From Alphaproteobacteria bacterium (lineage in GTDB: Bacteria; Pseudomonadota; Alphaproteobacteria; UBA828), in contig CAXXVO010000005.1 of assembly GCA_963422645.2 (NCBI GenBank), positions 128,001 through 192,000 of the forward strand: a stretch of 64,000 bases of DNA, read 5' to 3'. Within the stretch, counting starts at the first letter, position 1, and each line of letters opens with the position of its first letter. Under the pieces are notes generated by a model. It was not told the origin of the DNA. It saw only the letters and a list, made by a program, of their open reading frames with translations, and did not search any database. Position numbers and translations under genes: made by a program. Below, one piece after another: positions 3,400-27,709 of this stretch.

Positions 3400-3725
3400 G
3401 CGGCCCGCATCTCGTCAGCCGGCTACGCGGGACCGCTTCGGACCACATCGGGGAAGTCCACCGCTCGTCTCCGCCGCGCCGACCCTGGCGGTCTCAGCCA
3501 ACGCCGTGACCTCGGGGTTGGAGCGTCACCGCGCGTCCCTCGCCAGAATCTGTTTCACGGCAAAATAGTTGGAGTGAGTCACGGTAACTACCCAGGTACC
3601 CCAATCCTGAGTTGAGGACGGTGATTATGGCGGCGGCCGCGGCCTGGTTCTGCCACCGCGATTGGTTCTTGACCTCATAGAGTTGCGGGACTATGGACTG
3701 CTCTCTCGCGTGACGGGAGCGGTCC

Positions 3726-4391
3726 ATGGGGTATTTCGGCTCGAAGGCGACAGCAGGTCTGTGCCAAGCGCTGATTGCGCTGATGCCGCCGCACTCCGTC
3801 TACATCGAAAGCCACCTTGGGGGCGGGGCGCTGATGAAGCGCAAGCCGCCGGCCGTGCGTTCGATCGGCATCGACCGCGATGCGCAGGCGCTCGAGGCCT
3901 TCGTCTGCGACTACCCGGTCGATCTGGTTCACGGCTGTGCCCATGACTTCCTGGCCTCGTTCCCGTTCCTGGGCCCGGAGCTGGTTTACAGCGATCCGCC
4001 CTATCTGCACGCGACCCGCCGCTCGGCGCAGCGCTACCGCTTCGAGTACGAGGAGGCCGGCCACGTCGCGCTTCTCGCGCTGCTCAAGGCTCTGCCCTGC
4101 CAGGTCATGATCTCGGGCCATCCGTCGGCGCTCTATGACGAGGTGCTGGCGGGATGGCGCCGGCTGGCGCTGCAGGTCACGACCCAGGGTCTGGTGCGAA
4201 CCGAGGTCGTCTGGTTCAACTACGCCCCCGACCGGATGCATTGGGCCAGCCACGCAGGCCGGAACTTCACCGACCGCCAGCGCATCAAGCGCAAGGCAGC
4301 CAACTGGGGCCGGCGCTACCAGGCCTTGCCGCCGGGCGAACGCCTCGCCGTGCTCGCCGCCATGATGGCCGTCGAGGCCGAAGACACGTGA
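3726..4391 (+). CDS. Dam-like (D12 class) N6-adenine DNA methyltransferase
   Basis: N-terminal YFGSK, SAM-binding YIESHLGGG and catalytic DPPY motifs. Confidence 0.88.
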   Translation: MGYFGSKATAGLCQALIALMPPHSVYIESHLGGGALMKRKPPAVRSIGIDRDAQALEAFVCDYPVDLVHGCAHDFLASFPFLGPELVYSDPPYLHATRRSAQRYRFEYEEAGHVALLALLKALPCQVMISGHPSALYDEVLAGWRRLALQVTTQGLVRTEVVWFNYAPDRMHWASHAGRNFTDRQRIKRKAANWGRRYQALPPGERLAVLAAMMAVEAEDT

Positions 4392-5929
4392 CGGTGTCGC
4401 ACTGGCACGAAGACCTCGCCGCCCGTAACGAGGCCTTCTGCTGCCTGAAGGAGCTTCTCGAGCCATCATCCCTCGCAACCACTGTCGTCGTTGCCGTCCG
4501 GGAATGGGGGCAGGGGCTGCTGCGATCAGCCACCGCGCTCGCCCGGGAAAATGCCGCACTCGAGCAGGAGAACGCGGCCCTGCGCGAGCGCATCGCCGAA
4601 CTCGAGCGCAGCGCGGCCCTCAACAGCACCACAAGCAGCAAGCCCCCCGCCAGCGACGGGCTCAAGAAGAAAAGCGGAGCCCAGAGGCGCACCCAAAGCC
4701 AGCGCGGAAAGTCCGGCGGGCCCAGTGGCGGCCAGCCCGGCCACAAGGGAACCACCCTCGCGCGGAGCGACAGCCCGGACCGTGTCGTCGATCACCACCC
4801 CTCCACCTGTTCCGGCTGTGGCGTCGAGCTCTCGGACGCCGACCGGCAAGGCGCGCCCGCCTGTCGGCAGGTCTTCGACGTACCCGAGCCGCAGCCTCTC
4901 GAGGTCACCGAACACCGCGCCCATCGCTGCCTCTGCGGCGCATGCGGCACGCTGACACGAGCCGCCTTCCCGCCGGGCGTCACCGCCCCGGTCCAGTACG
5001 GCCCTCGCATCACCGCTTGGGTGAGTTACCTGCTGTACGCCCAGTTCGTGCCCGAGAAGCGTCTGGCCGAACTCATGAGCGACATCTTCGCGGTGTCCAT
5101 CTCCACTGCCACGATCGCCGCCATGGGCCGGCGCACAGCGCAGCGCTTCGAGGGCTTCCTCGACCATGTCGCCGATCTGATCCGCACGCAGGCGCCGGTC
5201 AAGCACCTCGACGAGACCGGCCTGCGTATCGCCGCCCGTACCCGCTGGCTCCATGTGCTGTGCACCCCGTTGCTCACCGTCCTGCGCATCGGCGAGGGAC
5301 GCGGCGATGTCGAAAAGAACCTGAAAGGCATCCTCGTCCACGACGACTTCGCCCCCTACTTCACCATCAAGGGCGTCCGCCACGGCGCCTGCAACGCACA
5401 TCACCTGCGCGAACTCCAGGCCCTGATCGACATCGAGAAGGAGGAATGGGCGGCGAGCATGCACCGCCTGCTTCAGCGCGCTCAGCGCAGGGCCGCCCGC
5501 TTCGCCCGTGAGAAAGACCGTCAAGTCCCCGCCTCCCTGGTGGCCCGCATCTCAAGGGCATGGGACCGTATCCTCGAAGAAGCCATCGCCTTCCATGAGG
5601 CCCAACCGCCGCTCCAGATCGCAAAGCGAGGGCGAAAGAAACGCCGCATCGGCCACAACCTCGCGCGCCGCCTTCAAAAGCATAAGGAGGGCTGCCTGCG
5701 CTTCCTCACCGACCTGCGCACGCCGTTCACGAATAACGAGGCGGAGCGTGACATCCGTATGAACAAAGTGCATGAGAAGATCTCAGGCGGCTTCCGCTCC
5801 CTGCAAGGCGCCTGCAACTTCGCCGGAATGCGCAGCGTCATCGTCACCGCTCGAAAGCAAGGCTGGAACATCCTGCAAATCCTGGCGCACCCGGAACCGA
5901 TGCAGCTGATCCCTATACTGCGCTCCTGA
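4388..5929 (+). CDS. IS66-family transposase (TnpC-like, single ORF)
   Basis: Coiled coil, SSKPPASD, GGQPGHKG, Zn-finger CxxC pairs, HLDETG, CNAHHLREL, FTNNEAERDIR. Start inferred at the GTG overlapping the MTase TGA. Confidence 0.92.
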   Translation: MTVSHWHEDLAARNEAFCCLKELLEPSSLATTVVVAVREWGQGLLRSATALARENAALEQENAALRERIAELERSAALNSTTSSKPPASDGLKKKSGAQRRTQSQRGKSGGPSGGQPGHKGTTLARSDSPDRVVDHHPSTCSGCGVELSDADRQGAPACRQVFDVPEPQPLEVTEHRAHRCLCGACGTLTRAAFPPGVTAPVQYGPRITAWVSYLLYAQFVPEKRLAELMSDIFAVSISTATIAAMGRRTAQRFEGFLDHVADLIRTQAPVKHLDETGLRIAARTRWLHVLCTPLLTVLRIGEGRGDVEKNLKGILVHDDFAPYFTIKGVRHGACNAHHLRELQALIDIEKEEWAASMHRLLQRAQRRAARFAREKDRQVPASLVARISRAWDRILEEAIAFHEAQPPLQIAKRGRKKRRIGHNLARRLQKHKEGCLRFLTDLRTPFTNNEAERDIRMNKVHEKISGGFRSLQGACNFAGMRSVIVTARKQGWNILQILAHPEPMQLIPILRS

Positions 5930-6681
5930 ACTTCTCCGGCTCATCCTGAGTATCGCTGTCCTCTCATCTTGTTCGCGACGCGGCGTTCATCATCCTCTCG
6001 CGCTCAAGAGAGTAGGCACCCCCGCGGCGTGGGGGCGTTGACGCAAAAGGAACTGGCTTGTTCCATAAGAGAGAGGGGGTACCTGGGCAGTTACGAGTCA
6101 CGAGATTGGGTGGGTTGCTTTGTCTCCTGATTAAGTGTTATGTTACTGGTAGTTGTGGAATTGCGCAAGAGAATTGTAGCGGTACCGTTCTGATGTAAGA
6201 GAGGAGGGCTTGGAGGACTATGTTGCAATCAGGGAAGTGAATGCGTATGTCGGAGATGATTGATCTGTCATTGGGGAGGGGCATGCGGTGGATATGATTG
6301 TGAATAGAGGCGATAAGGCGGTGACCGGGAGCGACGTATCCGGGTGGGACGGTCTTACTGGTATTATATGGAGTATTGCAGGTGATCCGGGCCAGAATGC
6401 GGCTCCGAGATCCCGTCGTCGCCCTCAACTAGAGGCACGTCCGCACCAAATCCTCGTCGCGGATAGCCATGCGCGCGACGGTAGCGCACAGCCAGAGTCG
6501 TTACCAGTGACTTGAGAAATCCCAGCCGATAGCGATCACAACGCCGTCCGCCTCCACGGCCGAACCGCATCCTTATCAACCAGTTACACAGCGAACCGGT
6601 CGCCCCCCGCCACGCGCGGGTCCGTGAGGGCAAAAGCCAAATGGCTGAGCTACTCGACCGCTGATCACAGCGGTTGATCTA

Positions 6682-7864
6682 GTCACCTGAATCTAAAGTT
6701 CGTGGCATAAATTTTGTTCGACCCGAAGGCAGAAGCGCTTGACGGCGGCGAGGATGTCGTCGGCTGATTTGGTCCACCTGAAGGGTCGGGGATTTTCGTT
6801 GTGGGTTTCGATGAAGGCGTGGATGTCGGCTTCGAGCTGGCGGGTGGATGTGTGCACCCCGCGTTGCAGCTGCTTGCGTGTCAGCTCGGCGAACCAGCGC
6901 TCGACCTGATTGAGCCACGACGCCGATGTCGGCGTGAAGTGGACGTGCCAATGCGGACGCCGCGCCAGCCAGGCCTTGACCCCCGCCGTCTTGTGGGTGG
7001 CGTAGTTGTCCATGACGACGTGGATGTCCAGCCCGTCCGGGACATTGCGATCGATCACCTTCAGGAAGTCGAGGAACTCCCTGGCCCGGTGGCGGCGATA
7101 GCACTTGCCTATGACCGAGCCGGTGGCAACGTCGAGGGCGGCGAAGAGCGAGGTCGTGCCGTTGCGCTTGTAGTCATGGGTGCGCCGCTCAGGGATGCCC
7201 GGCAGCATCGGCAGGACCGGCTGGCTGCGGTCGAGCGCCTGGATCTGGCTCTTTTCGTCGACACAGAGCACCAGCGCGCGATCCGGCGGCGACATGTAGA
7301 GGCCTACGATGTCGCGGACCTTCTCCACGAAGTGCGGATCGGCCGACAGCTTGAAGGTCTCGGCCCGATGGGGCTGCAGGCCGAAGGCGCCCCAGATGCG
7401 CCAGATCGACGTGTGCGACAGCCCCGCCTCCTTCGCCATCGAGCGCAGCGACCAGTGGGTGGCGTCCGCAGGCGTCGAGGTGAGCGTCCGCTCGATCACT
7501 TGCGCCACCTTCTCGTCCGCGATGGTCCGCGGCCGTCCCGGCCGGGGTTCGTCCGACAGACCCTCGATGCGGTCCTTGACGAAGCGCCTCCGCCACTTGC
7601 CGACGGTGTGTTCGTGCACGCCGATCTCTGCGGCCACCGCCTTGTTGCCAAGCCCGTCCGCGCAAAGCAGGATCATGCGGCAGCGATCCGACATGGAGCG
7701 CGCCACACGGTGGCGGCGAACCTGCGCTTCCAGAAACGACCGCTCCTCACCGCTCAAGACCAGGGCCGCCAGCGGCCGTCCCGTACCGCGCGCCATCGAG
7801 ATGACCTCCTCTGTCCGACTCGGAGAGCCACCCTACAATGAACCCTACTTCCGTGCCAGGTGAC
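6682..7864 (-). mobile_element. IS630-family element
   Basis: Inverted ends GTCACCTG...AAGT; inserted in CTAG with TA duplicated (6680-6681, 7865-7866). Confidence 0.9.
6693..7796 (-). CDS. IS630-family transposase
   Basis: HTH region; [19 protein letters not shown] and [13 protein letters not shown] motifs. Confidence 0.95.
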
Positions 7865-23185: not shown

Positions 23186-24180
23186 TGTCGACGGCGGAGG
23201 AATAATGCACCACGCTGTGGGACACGACCCGGTCCGGTCGCGGCGACGCAAAATTTCGCCACCCATGGCCCCTTGTCGGTAGTGTCGAGGGGCGGGGGAT
23301 GTACGGCGTGGAGATCTATGCGGCGGTTCGTCTGGCGGTTGTCGATGAGGGTCTGAGCCATCACGAGGCGGCGCGGCGGTTCGGCATCGACCGGCGGACG
23401 GTGAAGAAGATGCTGAGCTATTCGGCGCCGCCGGGCTACCGCCGGACCAAGCCGGACGGGTTCACCGGCATCATCGATGCGATCCTTGTCGCGCGGGACG
23501 CGCGCGGAGCGCACGATGAGGCGGACAGGGATCCGGATGTGCCGCGCAAGCAGCGGCACACGGCGCATCGGATCTTCGAGCGACTGCGGGACGAGCACGG
23601 GTTCACGGGTAGCTACACGATCGTGAAGGACTATGTGCGGTCCCGCCGGCAGTCGACGCGGGAGGCCTTCGTTCCGCTGCATCACCCGCCGGGCCATGCC
23701 CAGGTCGACTTCGGCGAGGCGGTGGTGAAGTTGCGGGGGCAACGCGAGAAGGTCGCCTTCTTCTGCCTGATCCTGCCCCATTCCAATGTCTGGTTCGTGA
23801 AGGCCTATCCCCGGGAGACGAACGAGGCCTTCCTCGACGGCCATGTCAGCGCCTTCGCCTTCCTCGGCGGGGTCCCCCGATCAATCCTGTACGACAACAC
23901 GACGCTCGCGGTGGTGCGGATCCTGGGCGACGGCACCCGCCGGCGCACTCGTGCGTTCACGCATCTGCAGTCGCACTACCTGTTCCGCGACCGCTTCGGC
24001 CGGCCCGGCAAGGGCAACGATAAGGGCAAGGTCGAGGCTCTGGTGAAGATGGCGCGCCGCAAGTTCCTCGTGCCGATCCCGAAGGTGCACGACCTGGACG
24101 TTCTGAACGAGCGGCTGGCGGCACGTTGCCTGGAGCGTCTCGATGTGCTGGAGCAAGGCGAGCGGGCGGCGGCGCTGTTG
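23186..24180 (+). pseudogene. IS21-family left end plus truncated istA
   Basis: TGT end at 23186; ORF from 23299 with AQVDFG, LYDN and NDKGKVE; C-terminus replaced by IS3 sequence. Confidence 0.8.
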
Positions 24181-24590
24181 GCCGAGGCGGCCGGCATGAT
24201 CCAGGAATACGAGGCCCGGATCACGGCGCTCGAGCGGCTGGTCGGCAAACAGGCCCTGGAGATCGAGTTCCTAAGGGGGGCTCAAAGGCAAGGACGGCGG
24301 TCGGGAAGCGCGCCCATGTCCGTCATCACTGGCCCGAAGAAGGGCTCTCCATCGCCGAAGGATGCCGACTGATGGGGATAGCGCGCTCCACCTATTACAG
24401 GGAACCGGAGGGATCGGCCGACGACACCGCCCTGGTAGAGGCCATGCACGCGATCAAGGACGAGTTGGAAGCCTATGGCTGGCGGCGCATGCAGGTGGCG
24501 CTCAGGCATCGGGGCTGGATCGTGAACCACAAGAAGATCCAACGCCCGATGCGCGAGCATGCCATGCAGCCGCCGCGCCGGCGCCGATTC
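24181..24590 (+). pseudogene. IS3-family fragment (orfA end and orfB start)
   Basis: LERLVGKQALEIEFL; MGIARSTYY...YGWRRM...VNHKKIQR. Confidence 0.8.
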
Positions 24591-25134
24591 TACCACGCTG
24601 CTGGTGCTTCGGCAGCGTGCCCGAGGTCGTCTCACTCAGTGGTGTGACAACGGTCACCCGTTCAAGAGTATGACCCGGGTCGCGATCGGCGTTTGACATT
24701 GATGGCAGGGGCGATCTGCCCCGGACCTCGTATAAGAGACTGACTCTTTGCCAAGCGACTCCTGCTGCCGAAGCAGTTCTGGCCGGTGAGCTCGCGTCGG
24801 GTCCGAGAAGGCTTGGCGATGGGCCCGGAGAAGGACGCAGCGCGTGCCGCCTAGAGATTTTCGCTTTGGCGGGCGGGGGCGTCTGACCTGATCGTCGATA
24901 TTGCCTTGGCCTCGCCAGCTGGCAAGTCACCCGGCGGCCTTTTGATCTTGCCGCAATGCACATGAAATAGTAACTGCCCAGGTACCCCCTCTCTCTTATG
25001 GAACAAGCCAGTTCCTTTTGCGTCAACGCCCCCACGCCGCGGGGGTGCCTACTCTCTTGAGCGCGAGAGGATGATGAACGCCGCGTCGCGAACAAGATGA
25101 GAGGACAGCGATACTCAGGATGAGCCGGAGAAGT

Positions 25135-26673
25135 TCAGGAGCGCAGTATAGGGATCAGCTGCATCGGTTCCGGGTGCGCCAGGATTTGCAGGATGTTCCA
25201 GCCTTGCTTTCGAGCGGTGACGATGACGCTGCGCATTCCGGCGAAGTTGCAGGCGCCTTGCAGGGAGCGGAAGCCGCCTGAGATCTTCTCATGCACTTTG
25301 TTCATACGGATGTCACGCTCCGCCTCGTTATTCGTGAACGGCGTGCGCAGGTCGGTGAGGAAGCGCAGGCAGCCCTCCTTATGCTTTTGAAGGCGGCGCG
25401 CGAGGTTGTGGCCGATGCGGCGTTTCTTTCGCCCTCGCTTTGCGATCTGGAGCGGCGGTTGGGCCTCATGGAAGGCGATGGCTTCTTCGAGGATACGGTC
25501 CCATGCCCTTGAGATGCGGGCCACCAGGGAGGCGGGGACTTGACGGTCTTTCTCACGGGCGAAGCGGGCGGCCCTGCGCGCGCGCTGAAGCAGGCGGTGC
25601 ATGCTCGCCGCCCATTCCTCCTTCTCGATGTCGATCAGGGCCTGGAGTTCGCGCAGGTGATGTGCGTTGCAGGCGCCGTGGCGGACGCCCTTGATGGTGA
25701 AGTAGGGGGCGAAGTCGTCGTGGACGAGGATGCCTTTCAGGTTCTTTTCGACATCGCCGCGTCCCTCGCCGATGCGCAGGACGGTGAGCAACGGGGTGCA
25801 CAGCACATGGAGCCAGCGGGTACGGGCGGCGATACGCAGGCCGGTCTCGTCGAGGTGCTTGACCGGCGCCTGCGTGCGGATCAGATCGGCGACATGGTCG
25901 AGGAAGCCCTCGAAGCGCTGCGCTGTGCGCCGGCCCATGGCGGCGATCGTGGCAGTGGAGATGGACACCGCGAAGATGTCGCTCATGAGTTCGGCCAGAC
26001 GCTTCTCGGGCACGAACTGGGCGTACAGCAGGTAACTCACCCAAGCGGTGATGCGAGGGCCGTACTGGACCGGGGCGGTGACGCCCGGCGGGAAGGCGGC
26101 TCGTGTCAGCGTGCCGCATGCGCCGCAGAGGCAGCGATGGGCGCGGTGTTCGGTGACCTCGAGAGGCTGCGGCTCGGGTACGTCGAAGACCTGCCGACAG
26201 GCGGGCGCGCCTTGCCGGTCGGCGTCCGAGAGCTCGACGCCACAGCCGGAACAGGTGGAGGGGTGGTGATCGACGACACGGTCCGGGCTGTCGCTCCGCG
26301 CGAGGGTGGTTCCCTTGTGGCCGGGCTGGCCGCCACTGGGCCCGCCGGACTTTCCGCGCTGGCTTTGGGTGCGCCTCTGGGCTCCGCTTTTCTTCTTGAG
26401 CCCGTCGCTGGCGGGGGGCTTGCTGCTTGTGGTGCTGTTGAGGGCCGCGCTGCGCTCGAGTTCGGCGATGCGCTCGCGCAGGGCCGCGTTCTCCTGCTCG
26501 AGTGCGGCATTTTCCCGGGCGAGCGCGGTGGCTGATCGCAGCAGCCCCTGCCCCCATTCCCGGACGGCAACGACGACAGTGGTTGCGAGGGATGATGGCT
26601 CGAGAAGCTCCTTCAGGCAGCAGAAGGCCTCGTTACGGGCGGCGAGGTCTTCGTGCCAGTGCGACACCGTCAC
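25135..26673 (-). CDS. IS66-family transposase
   Basis: Same as 4388-5929 except one codon shorter (RAQRRA vs RARRA). Confidence 0.92.
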   Translation of the reverse strand: MTVSHWHEDLAARNEAFCCLKELLEPSSLATTVVVAVREWGQGLLRSATALARENAALEQENAALRERIAELERSAALNSTTSSKPPASDGLKKKSGAQRRTQSQRGKSGGPSGGQPGHKGTTLARSDSPDRVVDHHPSTCSGCGVELSDADRQGAPACRQVFDVPEPQPLEVTEHRAHRCLCGACGTLTRAAFPPGVTAPVQYGPRITAWVSYLLYAQFVPEKRLAELMSDIFAVSISTATIAAMGRRTAQRFEGFLDHVADLIRTQAPVKHLDETGLRIAARTRWLHVLCTPLLTVLRIGEGRGDVEKNLKGILVHDDFAPYFTIKGVRHGACNAHHLRELQALIDIEKEEWAASMHRLLQRARRAARFAREKDRQVPASLVARISRAWDRILEEAIAFHEAQPPLQIAKRGRKKRRIGHNLARRLQKHKEGCLRFLTDLRTPFTNNEAERDIRMNKVHEKISGGFRSLQGACNFAGMRSVIVTARKQGWNILQILAHPEPMQLIPILRS

Positions 26674-27335
26674 GTGTCTTCGGCCTCGACGGCCATCATG
26701 GCGGCGAGCACGGCGAGGCGTTCGCCCGGCGGCAAGGCCTGGTAGCGCCGGCCCCAGTTGGCTGCCTTGCGCTTGATGCGCTGGCGGTCGGTGAAGTTCC
26801 GGCCTGCGTGGCTGGCCCAATGCATCCGGTCGGGGGCGTAGTTGAACCAGACGACCTCGGTTCGCACCAGACCCTGGGTCGTGACCTGCAGCGCCAGCCG
26901 GCGCCATCCCGCCAGCACCTCGTCATAGAGCGCCGACGGATGGCCCGAGATCATGACCTGGCAGGGCAGAGCCTTGAGCAGCGCGAGAAGCGCGACGTGG
27001 CCGGCCTCCTCGTACTCGAAGCGGTAGCGCTGCGCCGAGCGGCGGGTCGCGTGCAGATAGGGCGGATCGCTGTAAACCAGCTCCGGGCCCAGGAACGGGA
27101 ACGAGGCCAGGAAGTCATGGGCACAGCCGTGAACCAGATCGACCGGGTAGTCGCAGACGAAGGCCTCGAGCGCCTGCGCATCGCGGTCGATGCCGATCGA
27201 ACGCACGGCCGGCGGCTTGCGCTTCGTCAGCGCCCCGCCCCCAAGGTGGCTTTCGATGTAGACGGAGTGCGGCGGCATCAGCGCAATCAGCGCTTGGCAC
27301 AGACCTGCTGTCGCCTTCGAGCCGAAATACCCCAT
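26670..27335 (-). CDS. Dam-like N6-adenine DNA methyltransferase
   Basis: Same as 3726-4391 except M37T. Confidence 0.88.
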   Translation of the reverse strand: MGYFGSKATAGLCQALIALMPPHSVYIESHLGGGALTKRKPPAVRSIGIDRDAQALEAFVCDYPVDLVHGCAHDFLASFPFLGPELVYSDPPYLHATRRSAQRYRFEYEEAGHVALLALLKALPCQVMISGHPSALYDEVLAGWRRLALQVTTQGLVRTEVVWFNYAPDRMHWASHAGRNFTDRQRIKRKAANWGRRYQALPPGERLAVLAAMMAVEAEDT

Positions 27336-27709
27336 GGACCGCTCCCGTCACGCGAGAGAGCAGTCCATAGTCCCGCAACTCTATGAGGTCAAGAACCAAT
27401 CGCGGTGGCAGAACCAGACCGCGGCCGCCGCCATAATCACCGTCCTCAACTCAGGATTGGGGTACCTGGGTAGTTACATGAAATAAGCATTTTGCATCCT
27501 GTCGGCGAACGCACCGGCTTGTTTCATAAGAGCGATTGATCCCATGTCACAATGAGGGATCACAAGTGCACGCCGAACAACAGGCGGCCGAGGTGGCCGT
27601 ACAGGGCGAGGGGAAATCAAGAAAGCCCCTCATCCCGAGTAGGCCTGCACGACCTATTCGAGGAACAGCGCGACGGGAAAACTCTTCGCCGGCGGGGACG
27701 GGATGCGCG

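Follow-up and report, generated by a model that had tools for sequence, protein, structure and literature searches.

An IS66-family insertion sequence with a Dam-fold gene of the Upf31 family and a candidate portable control cassette ahead of its transposase

The 64,000-nucleotide stretch of DNA analysed here, referred to below as the window, spans positions 128001–192000 of contig C6 in an alphaproteobacterial genome assembly (5.9 Mb, 23 contigs, completeness 99.58, contamination 8.48). It contains two full copies of a mobile element. The first, of 2,511 bp, lies between inverted ends of 19 nucleotides (nt) that both start with GTAAC and match at 18 of 19 positions; outside them an identical 8-mer, GAGTCACG, forms a direct repeat (Table 1). 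The list of open reading frames (ORFs) places only two genes between these ends, both on the forward strand: ORF1, which encodes a methyltransferase-like protein, and a transposase gene. The second copy, on the reverse strand, is flanked by a different 8-bp duplication, ATGAAATA, and its alignment with the first reveals a 3-bp indel in the transposase gene and two substitutions, one of which causes M37T in ORF1. An initial annotation, made from the sequence, had described a 2.5-kb, two-gene element with inverted GTAAC ends and the motifs YFGSK, HLGGG and DPPY in its first gene, a GTGA overlap between the two genes, an inverted second copy with its own perfect duplication, and no restriction endonuclease gene. 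All of these features are present as described. No third ORF of endonuclease size fits between the ends, and a restriction–modification system is rejected since the element lacks a third gene.

Table 1. Features of the element, in window coordinates
Feature	Positions	Strand	Remarks
Left copy of 8-bp target-site duplication, copy 1	3576–3583		Same 8-mer on both sides
Left terminal inverted repeat (IRL), starts GTAAC	3584–3602	+	19 nt, 95% complementary to 6076–6094; contigs from other runs break at 3583/3584
Putative promoter–operator	3669–3697	+	Kept in 19 aligned loci; promoter and operator function predicted
Leader hairpin, 3′ arm over GGAG ribosome site and first base of ORF1 start codon	3694–3726	+	Folding
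ORF1, 221 aa, Dam-fold Upf31-family methyltransferase-like protein	3726–4391	+	Profiles, fold model
GTGA: transposase GTG start overlapping ORF1 TGA stop (4389–4391)	4388–4391	+	Read directly
Transposase, 513 aa, IS66 family, single-ORF type, DUF6444 N-terminal region	4388–5929	+	Profile matches
Right terminal inverted repeat (IRR)	6076–6094	-	Inverted-repeat match; contigs from other runs break at 6095/6096
Right copy of 8-bp target-site duplication, copy 1	6095–6102		Same 8-mer on both sides
Second full copy	24970–27477	-	ORF1 26670–27335; transposase, 512 aa, 25135–26673; duplication 24962–24969 / 27478–27485

The transposase matches PF03050 (E = 1.2e-40), DUF6444 (E = 5.2e-10) and zf-IS66 (E = 6e-05), and scores 288.6 bits against NF033517, for which the cut-off is 180. 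Members of the IS66 family duplicate 8 bp of target and have terminal inverted repeats starting with GTAA, and the element has both of these along with an IS66-type DDE transposase. The canonical three-gene arrangement of the family is not found, in that neither tnpA nor tnpB lies between the ends and ORF1 has a methyltransferase fold. The PF03050/NF033517 transposase, the DUF6444 region, the 8-bp duplications, the GTAA ends and the absence of tnpA and tnpB are all features of the single-transposase subgroup of IS66, which we take to be the ISBst12 group of ISfinder. The element differs from that subgroup in adding an upstream gene, with its own predicted promoter, operator and leader, whose stop codon overlaps the transposase start. 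The nearest plasmid-borne relative of the transposase among the matches listed is 48% identical, comes from Bradyrhizobium and is annotated as a lone IS66 transposase. Residues 1–68 of the transposase (4388–4591) have no counterpart in the 25 plasmid-borne IS66 relatives among the matches listed, none of which aligns before residue 69, and the cassette-linked lineage may be alone in having this N-terminal extension.

The junction between the two genes was surveyed in 12 representatives of the close IS66 lineage, comprising the window and a single locus from every distinct sequence group of the 62 loci introduced below. GTGA is present in 11 of them; in the twelfth, L074, ORF1 has a premature stop. 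The open transposase frame upstream of the GTG extends over 252 nt in the window, 96 nt in L015 and L038, and 12 nt in L054, where a stop codon excludes any earlier start. The conserved transposase protein sequence begins right at the GTG. Because the upstream frame is not conserved and conservation starts at the GTG, we reject a 591-residue transposase initiated at the ATG at 4154, and equally a product in which a −1 frameshift joins ORF1 and the transposase.

The element is an active, multi-copy, autonomous insertion sequence (IS) of the IS66 family. A blastn search of its own genome at 90% identity or above returned 105 pieces, 36 of them full length, on 15 contigs. Perfect 8-bp duplications flank 22 of the 36 full copies, and one more matches at seven of eight positions. 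The 22 duplicated targets differ from one another and are 37.5% GC, against 67.2% for the genome and 66.1% for the element, and the copies that occupy them all carry ORF1. The gene therefore moves as part of the element, lying as it does between IRL and IRR, as had been proposed; a non-transposase gene held inside the terminal repeats and travelling with them makes this a transporter IS. ORF1 is intact in 34 of the 36 full copies, the transposase is 512–513 residues long in 34, and both genes are intact in 32.

The remaining full copies have mismatched flanks, some of them reciprocal between copies: both flanks of C6:391794-394300, for example, recur exchanged at C9:531722-534228. In all, 14 of the 36 lack matching duplications, and the exchanged flanks indicate recombination between copies, through inversions or translocations, or else assembly joins across repeats. 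Both members of the swapped pair have the same 15-residue truncation of ORF1. Nine public sequencing runs hold at least half of the sampled words of the element; among 24 sequencing runs listed, no RNA run containing the element appeared. Four of these, from four studies, yielded contigs with zero or one differing letter per listed piece, all of the 3-bp-shorter form, which pass into unrelated sequence at the two ends (Table 1). Since contigs from four studies agree and break at the ends, the element and its boundaries are real, and the suspicion of an assembly artefact can be set aside.

No Pfam family matches ORF1 above threshold, PF02086 reaching 12.1 bits against a cut-off of 22, and TIGR00571 scores 22.1 bits against a cut-off of 114.85. 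Better matches were obtained with phrog_56, a DNA methyltransferase family (E = 2e-17), and PADLOC MTase_II (E = 5.6e-22), both on the C-terminal half of the protein. A profile built from 40 homologues matches DpnM (E = 3e-9), Escherichia coli Dam and T4 Dam. For the AlphaFold2 model (pLDDT 89.5), Foldseek ranks E. coli Dam and DpnM first, at a TM score of about 0.5. Residues G5, H23, G32, D90, P91, P92, H113, S130, G178 and R184 are invariant in the 40 homologues, and G34 and Y93 nearly so. ORF1 therefore has the S-adenosylmethionine (SAM)-binding glycine loop and the DPPY motif on a class I fold that characterise the D12 class of Dam, DpnM and T4 Dam (PF02086). A prediction of the homodimer scored 0.19 against a mark of 0.42.

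The resemblance to the D12 enzymes is incomplete. In the profile alignment, ORF1 residues 5–62 correspond to DpnM 18–73 and residues 80–158 to DpnM 183–266, leaving 17 residues of ORF1 opposite about 109 of DpnM. We take this DpnM segment to be the target-recognition domain, from which it follows that ORF1 has probably dispensed with that domain. The protein is also about 60 residues shorter than Dam-class proteins, and its C-terminus forms a different helical hairpin, in which two long helices (181–199 and 203–219) follow an invariant basic motif. Estimated against relatives, the ratio of non-synonymous to synonymous substitution (dN/dS) is 0.09–0.29 for ORF1 and 0.24–0.27 for the transposase; on these ratios ORF1 is under purifying selection. 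The invariance of the SAM-binding and DPPY motifs suggests that the protein may still transfer a methyl group to some substrate.

ORF1 and the control region ahead of it, which together we call the cassette, are found well beyond this genome. We collected the best 80 of 142 stretches encoding an ORF1 relative from contigs of one genome per species. They come from 28 assemblies whose names include Alpha- and Gammaproteobacteria, Tectimicrobiota, Dehalococcoidia, Binatia, Planctomycetota, Bacillota, Uhrbacteria and Acidobacteria, placing the cassette in at least eight phylum-level groups by record titles; this breadth is provisional because short contigs in metagenome bins may be mis-binned. The 900 nt past ORF1 were surveyed on the same strand at each of the 80 genome loci. 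In 62 there is an IS66 transposase 60–92% identical to that of the window, counting L086, whose transposase is only 26% identical and whose ORF1 groups with a distant lineage. Nine more have an IS66 transposase that is only about 29% identical while ORF1 is still about 70% identical, seven have an IS701-family transposase, one an IS630 transposase and one none. We do not regard IS630 as a carrier family: in L068 an IRL remnant lies ahead of the cassette, and on this ground we read the transposase that follows the cassette as having inserted secondarily into an IS66 element in decay.

The other versions are elements in their own right. The IS701 version measures 2,781 bp (NF049999, E = 1e-88); it has inverted repeats of its own, with 5-bp CTNAG duplications, and the cassette lies between them. 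IS701 carriers also hold a small divergent ORF (L075:3479-3790, reverse strand, and likewise in L092) with a weak DUF3024 match (E = 0.0033, below the cut-off); it is kept between two IS701 elements whose ORF1 coding regions are 80% identical in nucleotide sequence. The distant IS66 version has GTAAC ends, with 8-bp duplications in two of three copies inspected. When 80 metagenome loci were classified by similarity search, 63 were of this distant IS66 type, four were closer to that of the window, one was IS701, eight had no match and four were too short. Family searches resolved the eight into two IS1634 transposases, one ISKra4 transposase, two IS66 N-terminal domains, one Ogg-like gene and two loci without assignment. 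The IS1634 transposase is identified by NF033559 (E = 8.1e-74), and 16-nt terminal repeats enclose both genes; for ISKra4 (NF033572, E = 1.6e-82) the evidence is adjacency to the cassette. In L154 a 380-bp remnant of the N-terminus of an IS66 transposase lies between the cassette and the IS1634 gene.

Throughout these elements the arrangement of the genes is maintained. ORF1 stands directly upstream of a transposase gene on the same strand in 78 of the 80 genome loci. Of the 76 metagenome loci offering 600 nt or more of room, 68 show this by similarity search, and the family searches add five. A tree of 30 ORF1 proteins was computed from the window, 26 loci and three plasmid sequences, leaving out near-identical copies from the same genomes. 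It gathers all the IS-borne proteins into one clade, apart from the plasmid sequences (support 100/99), and places the IS701-linked proteins inside the clade of the window element's lineage (support 99/98). From this nesting we conclude that the cassette has moved between transposase families. A specific protein contact between ORF1 and the transposase is an unlikely reason for the linkage, as the same ORF1 clade serves unrelated transposase families.

To compare control regions, 170 nt upstream of ORF1 were aligned for the window and 18 loci, chosen from the best 80 genome loci so as to cover each sequence type. The window has TTGAC at 3669–3673 and CATAG at 3676–3680, followed after a 10-nt spacer by CTATG at 3691–3695, and this last half-site overlaps a putative −10 sequence, TATGGA, at 3692–3697. 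The pattern TTGAC-N2-CATAG-N10-CTATG recurs in all 19 aligned loci, which represent three IS types, with departures of one or two bases in some half-sites. A looser form (TTGRC, 1–4 nt, NNTAG-N10-CTAN) turned up in 77 of the 78 metagenome loci whose upstream sequence was long enough. In its own genome CATAG-N10-CTATG occurs 59 times, every one inside element copies, whereas nine other spacers (6–9 and 11–15 nt) gave zero or one match each. Three plasmid homologues were inspected, of which the closest, from Xanthomonas oryzae (56% identical), has the same CATAG-N10-CTATG upstream, and one from a Methylomonas plasmid has nothing obvious there. We infer that the inverted repeat is an operator embedded in the promoter.

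An inverted repeat lies between the −10 and the start codon in every element. In the window, the leader folds into a hairpin with a minimum free energy of −21.7 kcal/mol (z = −3.99), a stability reached by none of 200 shuffled sequences. The leaders of relatives behave similarly. We folded 83 distinct leaders singly, from the window and from the genome and metagenome loci, with mononucleotide shuffles as controls. At least eight pairs form in 79 of the 83, and the last paired base is no more than 6 nt from the start codon in 81. The median free energy is −13.9 kcal/mol and the median z −2.58, and for 60 leaders five or fewer of 100 shuffles were as stable. RNAalifold, applied to a mixed MAFFT alignment of 18 leaders, returned no structure, the two sequence groups being out of register, and it was replaced by the single folds and an ungapped alignment. 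The latter comprises the 28 of the 83 distinct leaders that are exactly 43 nt long. In its 12-pair helix, 78.9% of cells are paired, compared with 24–46% when the partners are slid, and in 8 of the 12 helix pairs both partners change in a compensatory way. Covariation scores 0.315, while shuffles average 0.177 (none of 500 reached the observed value) and the slid controls give 0.065–0.108. In one metagenome copy (L138:3436-3488) the hairpin loop holds a tandem pentanucleotide expansion, with five units in place of the one or two seen in relatives, and this repeat could vary in length.

These patterns of conservation bear on whether ORF1 has any part in transposition. It might instead be a passenger, selfish or beneficial to the host, that transposases have captured repeatedly by chance. 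Transporter ISs with methyltransferase passengers are on record, among them IS220 of the IS1380 family (cited in PMC11891212), which, so far as that citation describes it, likewise has a methyltransferase-like gene that sits inside the inverted repeats and moves with them. Truncated, solo cassettes also exist (L068 and L071). IS220 belongs to another IS family, however, whereas the present cassette recurs in four IS families and appears to be wired into transposase expression. Chance capture fits poorly with the near-constant placement of ORF1 directly ahead of a transposase on the same strand, with the overlap of ORF1 and the transposase start in the IS66 type-1 lineage, with the retention of promoter, operator and hairpin wherever the cassette goes, and with the intactness of ORF1 in nearly all copies in this genome. 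We consider a passenger role very doubtful.

A relative of ORF1 has been studied experimentally. Among 72,556 plasmid records there are 196 matches to ORF1, all below 60% identity, of which 134 lie on conjugative plasmids, and they include upf31.0 of the IncP-1β plasmids. Upf31 of pBP136 is 46% identical to ORF1 over residues 1–206, and the alignment extends to the C-terminus. The two proteins share an N-terminal G-K motif, the GGG loop, DPPY, a basic RIKRK motif and the C-terminal helices, and on these features ORF1 belongs to the Upf31 family. The study of Elg et al. (2025, PMC11997246) describes Upf31 as the product of a plasmid backbone gene, predicted to contact KorB, that failed to bring back GATC methylation in a dam-minus strain, as assayed by GATC-sensitive digestion. 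SMRT (single-molecule real-time) sequencing of methylase-free E. coli expressing it showed, in the authors' words, "no discernible kinetic patterns" (PMC11997246). A full-length hybrid, with the N-terminal part from R751 and the C-terminus from pBP136, reduced the activity of the upf31 promoter from 4.76 to 0.09 XylE units, and the authors suggest that the protein binds a promoter repeat, CAGCATCG (PMC11997246). The pBP136 promoter has TTGAC followed by a related 5-mer repeat at the same spacing as in the element. Family membership and this spacing connect Upf31, a reported autorepressor, with ORF1. They differ in setting, Upf31 belonging to a plasmid backbone and ORF1 heading a transposase operon inside ISs, and they differ in operator sequence as well as in clade.

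The initial annotation had called ORF1 a DNA adenine methyltransferase that could spread a methylation pattern or shield DNA from restriction. On such a reading ORF1 would be an ordinary, active orphan N6-adenine methyltransferase acting at a genome-wide motif, and its operator would serve dosage control only; some modification methylases are indeed autoregulated. A fold whose nearest matches are E. coli Dam, DpnM and T4 Dam, the invariance of D90, P91, P92 and G32 and near-invariance of G34 and Y93, the matches to phrog_56, MTase_II and, below its cut-off, TIGR00571, and the purifying selection all speak for it, as does the abundance of plasmid homologues on conjugative plasmids, where anti-restriction methylases are common. 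Several observations speak against it. The scores fall under the PF02086 and TIGR00571 cut-offs, 17 residues replace the presumed recognition domain, the element holds no cognate endonuclease, and a strict link to the transposase operon across four IS families is unexplained by host protection. Moreover, Upf31, the only relative tested, gave neither a SMRT signal in a methylase-free host nor GATC methylation in the experiments cited (PMC11997246). The claim is not supported by this evidence, and we regard an orphan methylase as unlikely. The family is large, with 3,706 clusters at 90% identity (E ≤ 1e-3, among the candidates scored) and 5,660 at 50% identity, of which 563 reach 1e-30, and the annotation "DNA adenine methylase" attached to these thousands of small proteins may mislead.

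Catalysis could also be confined to the element. The adenines that ORF1 methylates might be those of its own operator alone, which would give the element a private epigenetic switch, off when fully methylated and yielding a burst of expression from hemimethylated DNA after replication. Such a switch would be a self-encoded counterpart of the control of IS10 by host Dam. Each half-site does contain adenines and the operator occurs only in the element. We know of no methyltransferase of this fold that recognises a bipartite site of this length unaided by a recognition domain or subunit, which counts against the idea. The catalytic motifs are invariant even though the family is, from the experiments with Upf31, one of promoter-specific DNA binders (PMC11997246), and a target so rare could have escaped SMRT motif calling; the authors' report that no kinetic pattern was discernible nevertheless weighs on the other side. 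This possibility strikes us as improbable. In its broadest form it would make the cassette a portable "transposition governor", present in at least four unrelated IS families, in which ORF1 recognises and methylates only its own operator and so couples a switch, independently of host methylases, to replication and to copy number; we offer this as speculation, at an equally low estimate.

We favour, with middling confidence, a different interpretation, in which the element is a single-transposase IS66 insertion sequence equipped with a portable, self-repressing control cassette that acts as a brake on jumping. The cassette would comprise a promoter with TTGAC as its −35 sequence, the CATAG-N10-CTATG operator between the −35 and −10 sequences and overlapping the latter, the leader inverted repeat and the small Dam-fold gene. 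The ORF1 protein would bind the operator and repress its own promoter, as Upf31 does on IncP-1β plasmids. The transposase would be translated from the same transcript, starting at the GTG that overlaps the ORF1 stop, and its output would by that arrangement be tied to the self-limited expression of ORF1. Since every copy shares the same operator, the repressor would act in trans on all of them. The 3′ arm of the hairpin covers the ribosome site and the 5′ arm overlaps with both the predicted −10 and the presumed transcript start; because of the latter overlap, only transcripts begun outside the element would fold into the full hairpin, and fortuitous expression would be shut off. Of the three roles suggested for the gene in the initial annotation, regulation of its own transposition fits best, but through operator binding rather than through any demonstrated methylation. 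The proposal builds on the anatomy and mobility of the element, the conservation of cassette, operator and hairpin, the purifying selection on ORF1 and its fold. Repression, the transcript start, translational coupling and action in trans we infer from the Upf31 experiments and from the geometry of the locus.

A number of points weigh against this interpretation. Repression is carried over from a relative that is only 46% identical and has a different operator, CAGCATCG, of which only the position after TTGAC matches that of the element. An invariant DPPY motif and SAM loop across 40 homologues are not expected of a pure DNA-binding repressor, and on this account the protein may be chiefly a catalyst, with repression serving dosage control alone. 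A scan of 3500–6200 for consensus sigma-70 promoters found none, because the putative −10, TATGGA, fails the criteria of the scan. GAGG occurs 6–13 nt ahead of the GTG, so the transposase could start independently instead of by coupling. If transcription starts upstream of the hairpin, the native mRNA carries the hairpin too. Finally, with about 36 full copies and dozens of fragments present, any brake did not prevent a large expansion in this genome.

The proposed brake has a partial parallel in IS10 and IS50. Both are subject to fold-back inhibition by a leader inverted repeat, and host Dam acts on them through GATC. The proposal made here similarly places a methylase-family protein on the transposase promoter and a leader repeat that can sequester the start site in read-through transcripts. 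The host control of IS10 and IS50 by Dam (described in PMC9296519) relies on a methylase that belongs to the host, whereas the present element encodes its own factor and has an element-specific operator. Methyltransferase-passenger ISs, single-transposase IS66 elements and Upf31 were already known. Our literature searches, which did not take in ISfinder or TnPedia, found no published description of this cassette or protein in any IS, in agreement with the initial impression that the organisation was undescribed.

The copies in this genome are associated with several other rearrangements. Several copies have been interrupted at element positions 2074–2079 by a different element, roughly 2.5 kb long, with inverted ends of 16 nt and a duplication of 6 bp, leaving three pieces that span 1–2079 and 11 that start at 2074 (L176, C18:2700-8100, is an example); it is found at a second position, 2336 (window 5919), in two other copies. 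The junction recurs in contigs of runs X2 and X6, and the ORFs of the inserted element have weak helix-turn-helix (HTH) matches only. At least seven copies lie 180–830 bp from a second IS66-family element with 66–70% nucleotide identity, as at C16:124526-128578, C15:151698-155674 and C9:244240-248216, and one flanking 8-mer common to such sites suggests insertion into, followed by co-amplification with, that second element. In a deletion derivative, C6:265597-266811, positions 1–1031 are joined to 2331–2511, so that both ends and ORF1 are kept and most of the transposase gene is lost; this could be a non-autonomous, repressor-only copy. The surroundings of the two window copies form a nest of ISs. 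An IS110-family transposase gene (PF01548, PF02371; 2119–3399, forward strand) ends 185 bp ahead of copy 1, and an IS630-type transposase gene with DDE_3 and HTH domains (6693–7796, reverse strand) lies 600 bp past it. Copy 2 directly follows an ORF (24126–24647, forward strand) with an HTH_21 domain, which is typical of IS3-type transposases.

The element has done much to shape the structure of this genome, as its 105 pieces and the exchange of flanks between copies attest. For mobile DNA more widely, the usual picture of an insertion sequence is of two ends with a transposase between them, under the control of host factors or of what the transposase gene itself encodes. Here one conserved module heads the transposase operon in IS66, IS701, IS1634 and ISKra4 elements. 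ORF1 remains about 70% identical where the transposases are about 29% identical or come from different families, a sign that mobile DNA has here a regulatory device that can be transferred. The IS cassette also provides a second, much larger setting in which the role of the puzzling Upf31 protein may be worked out.

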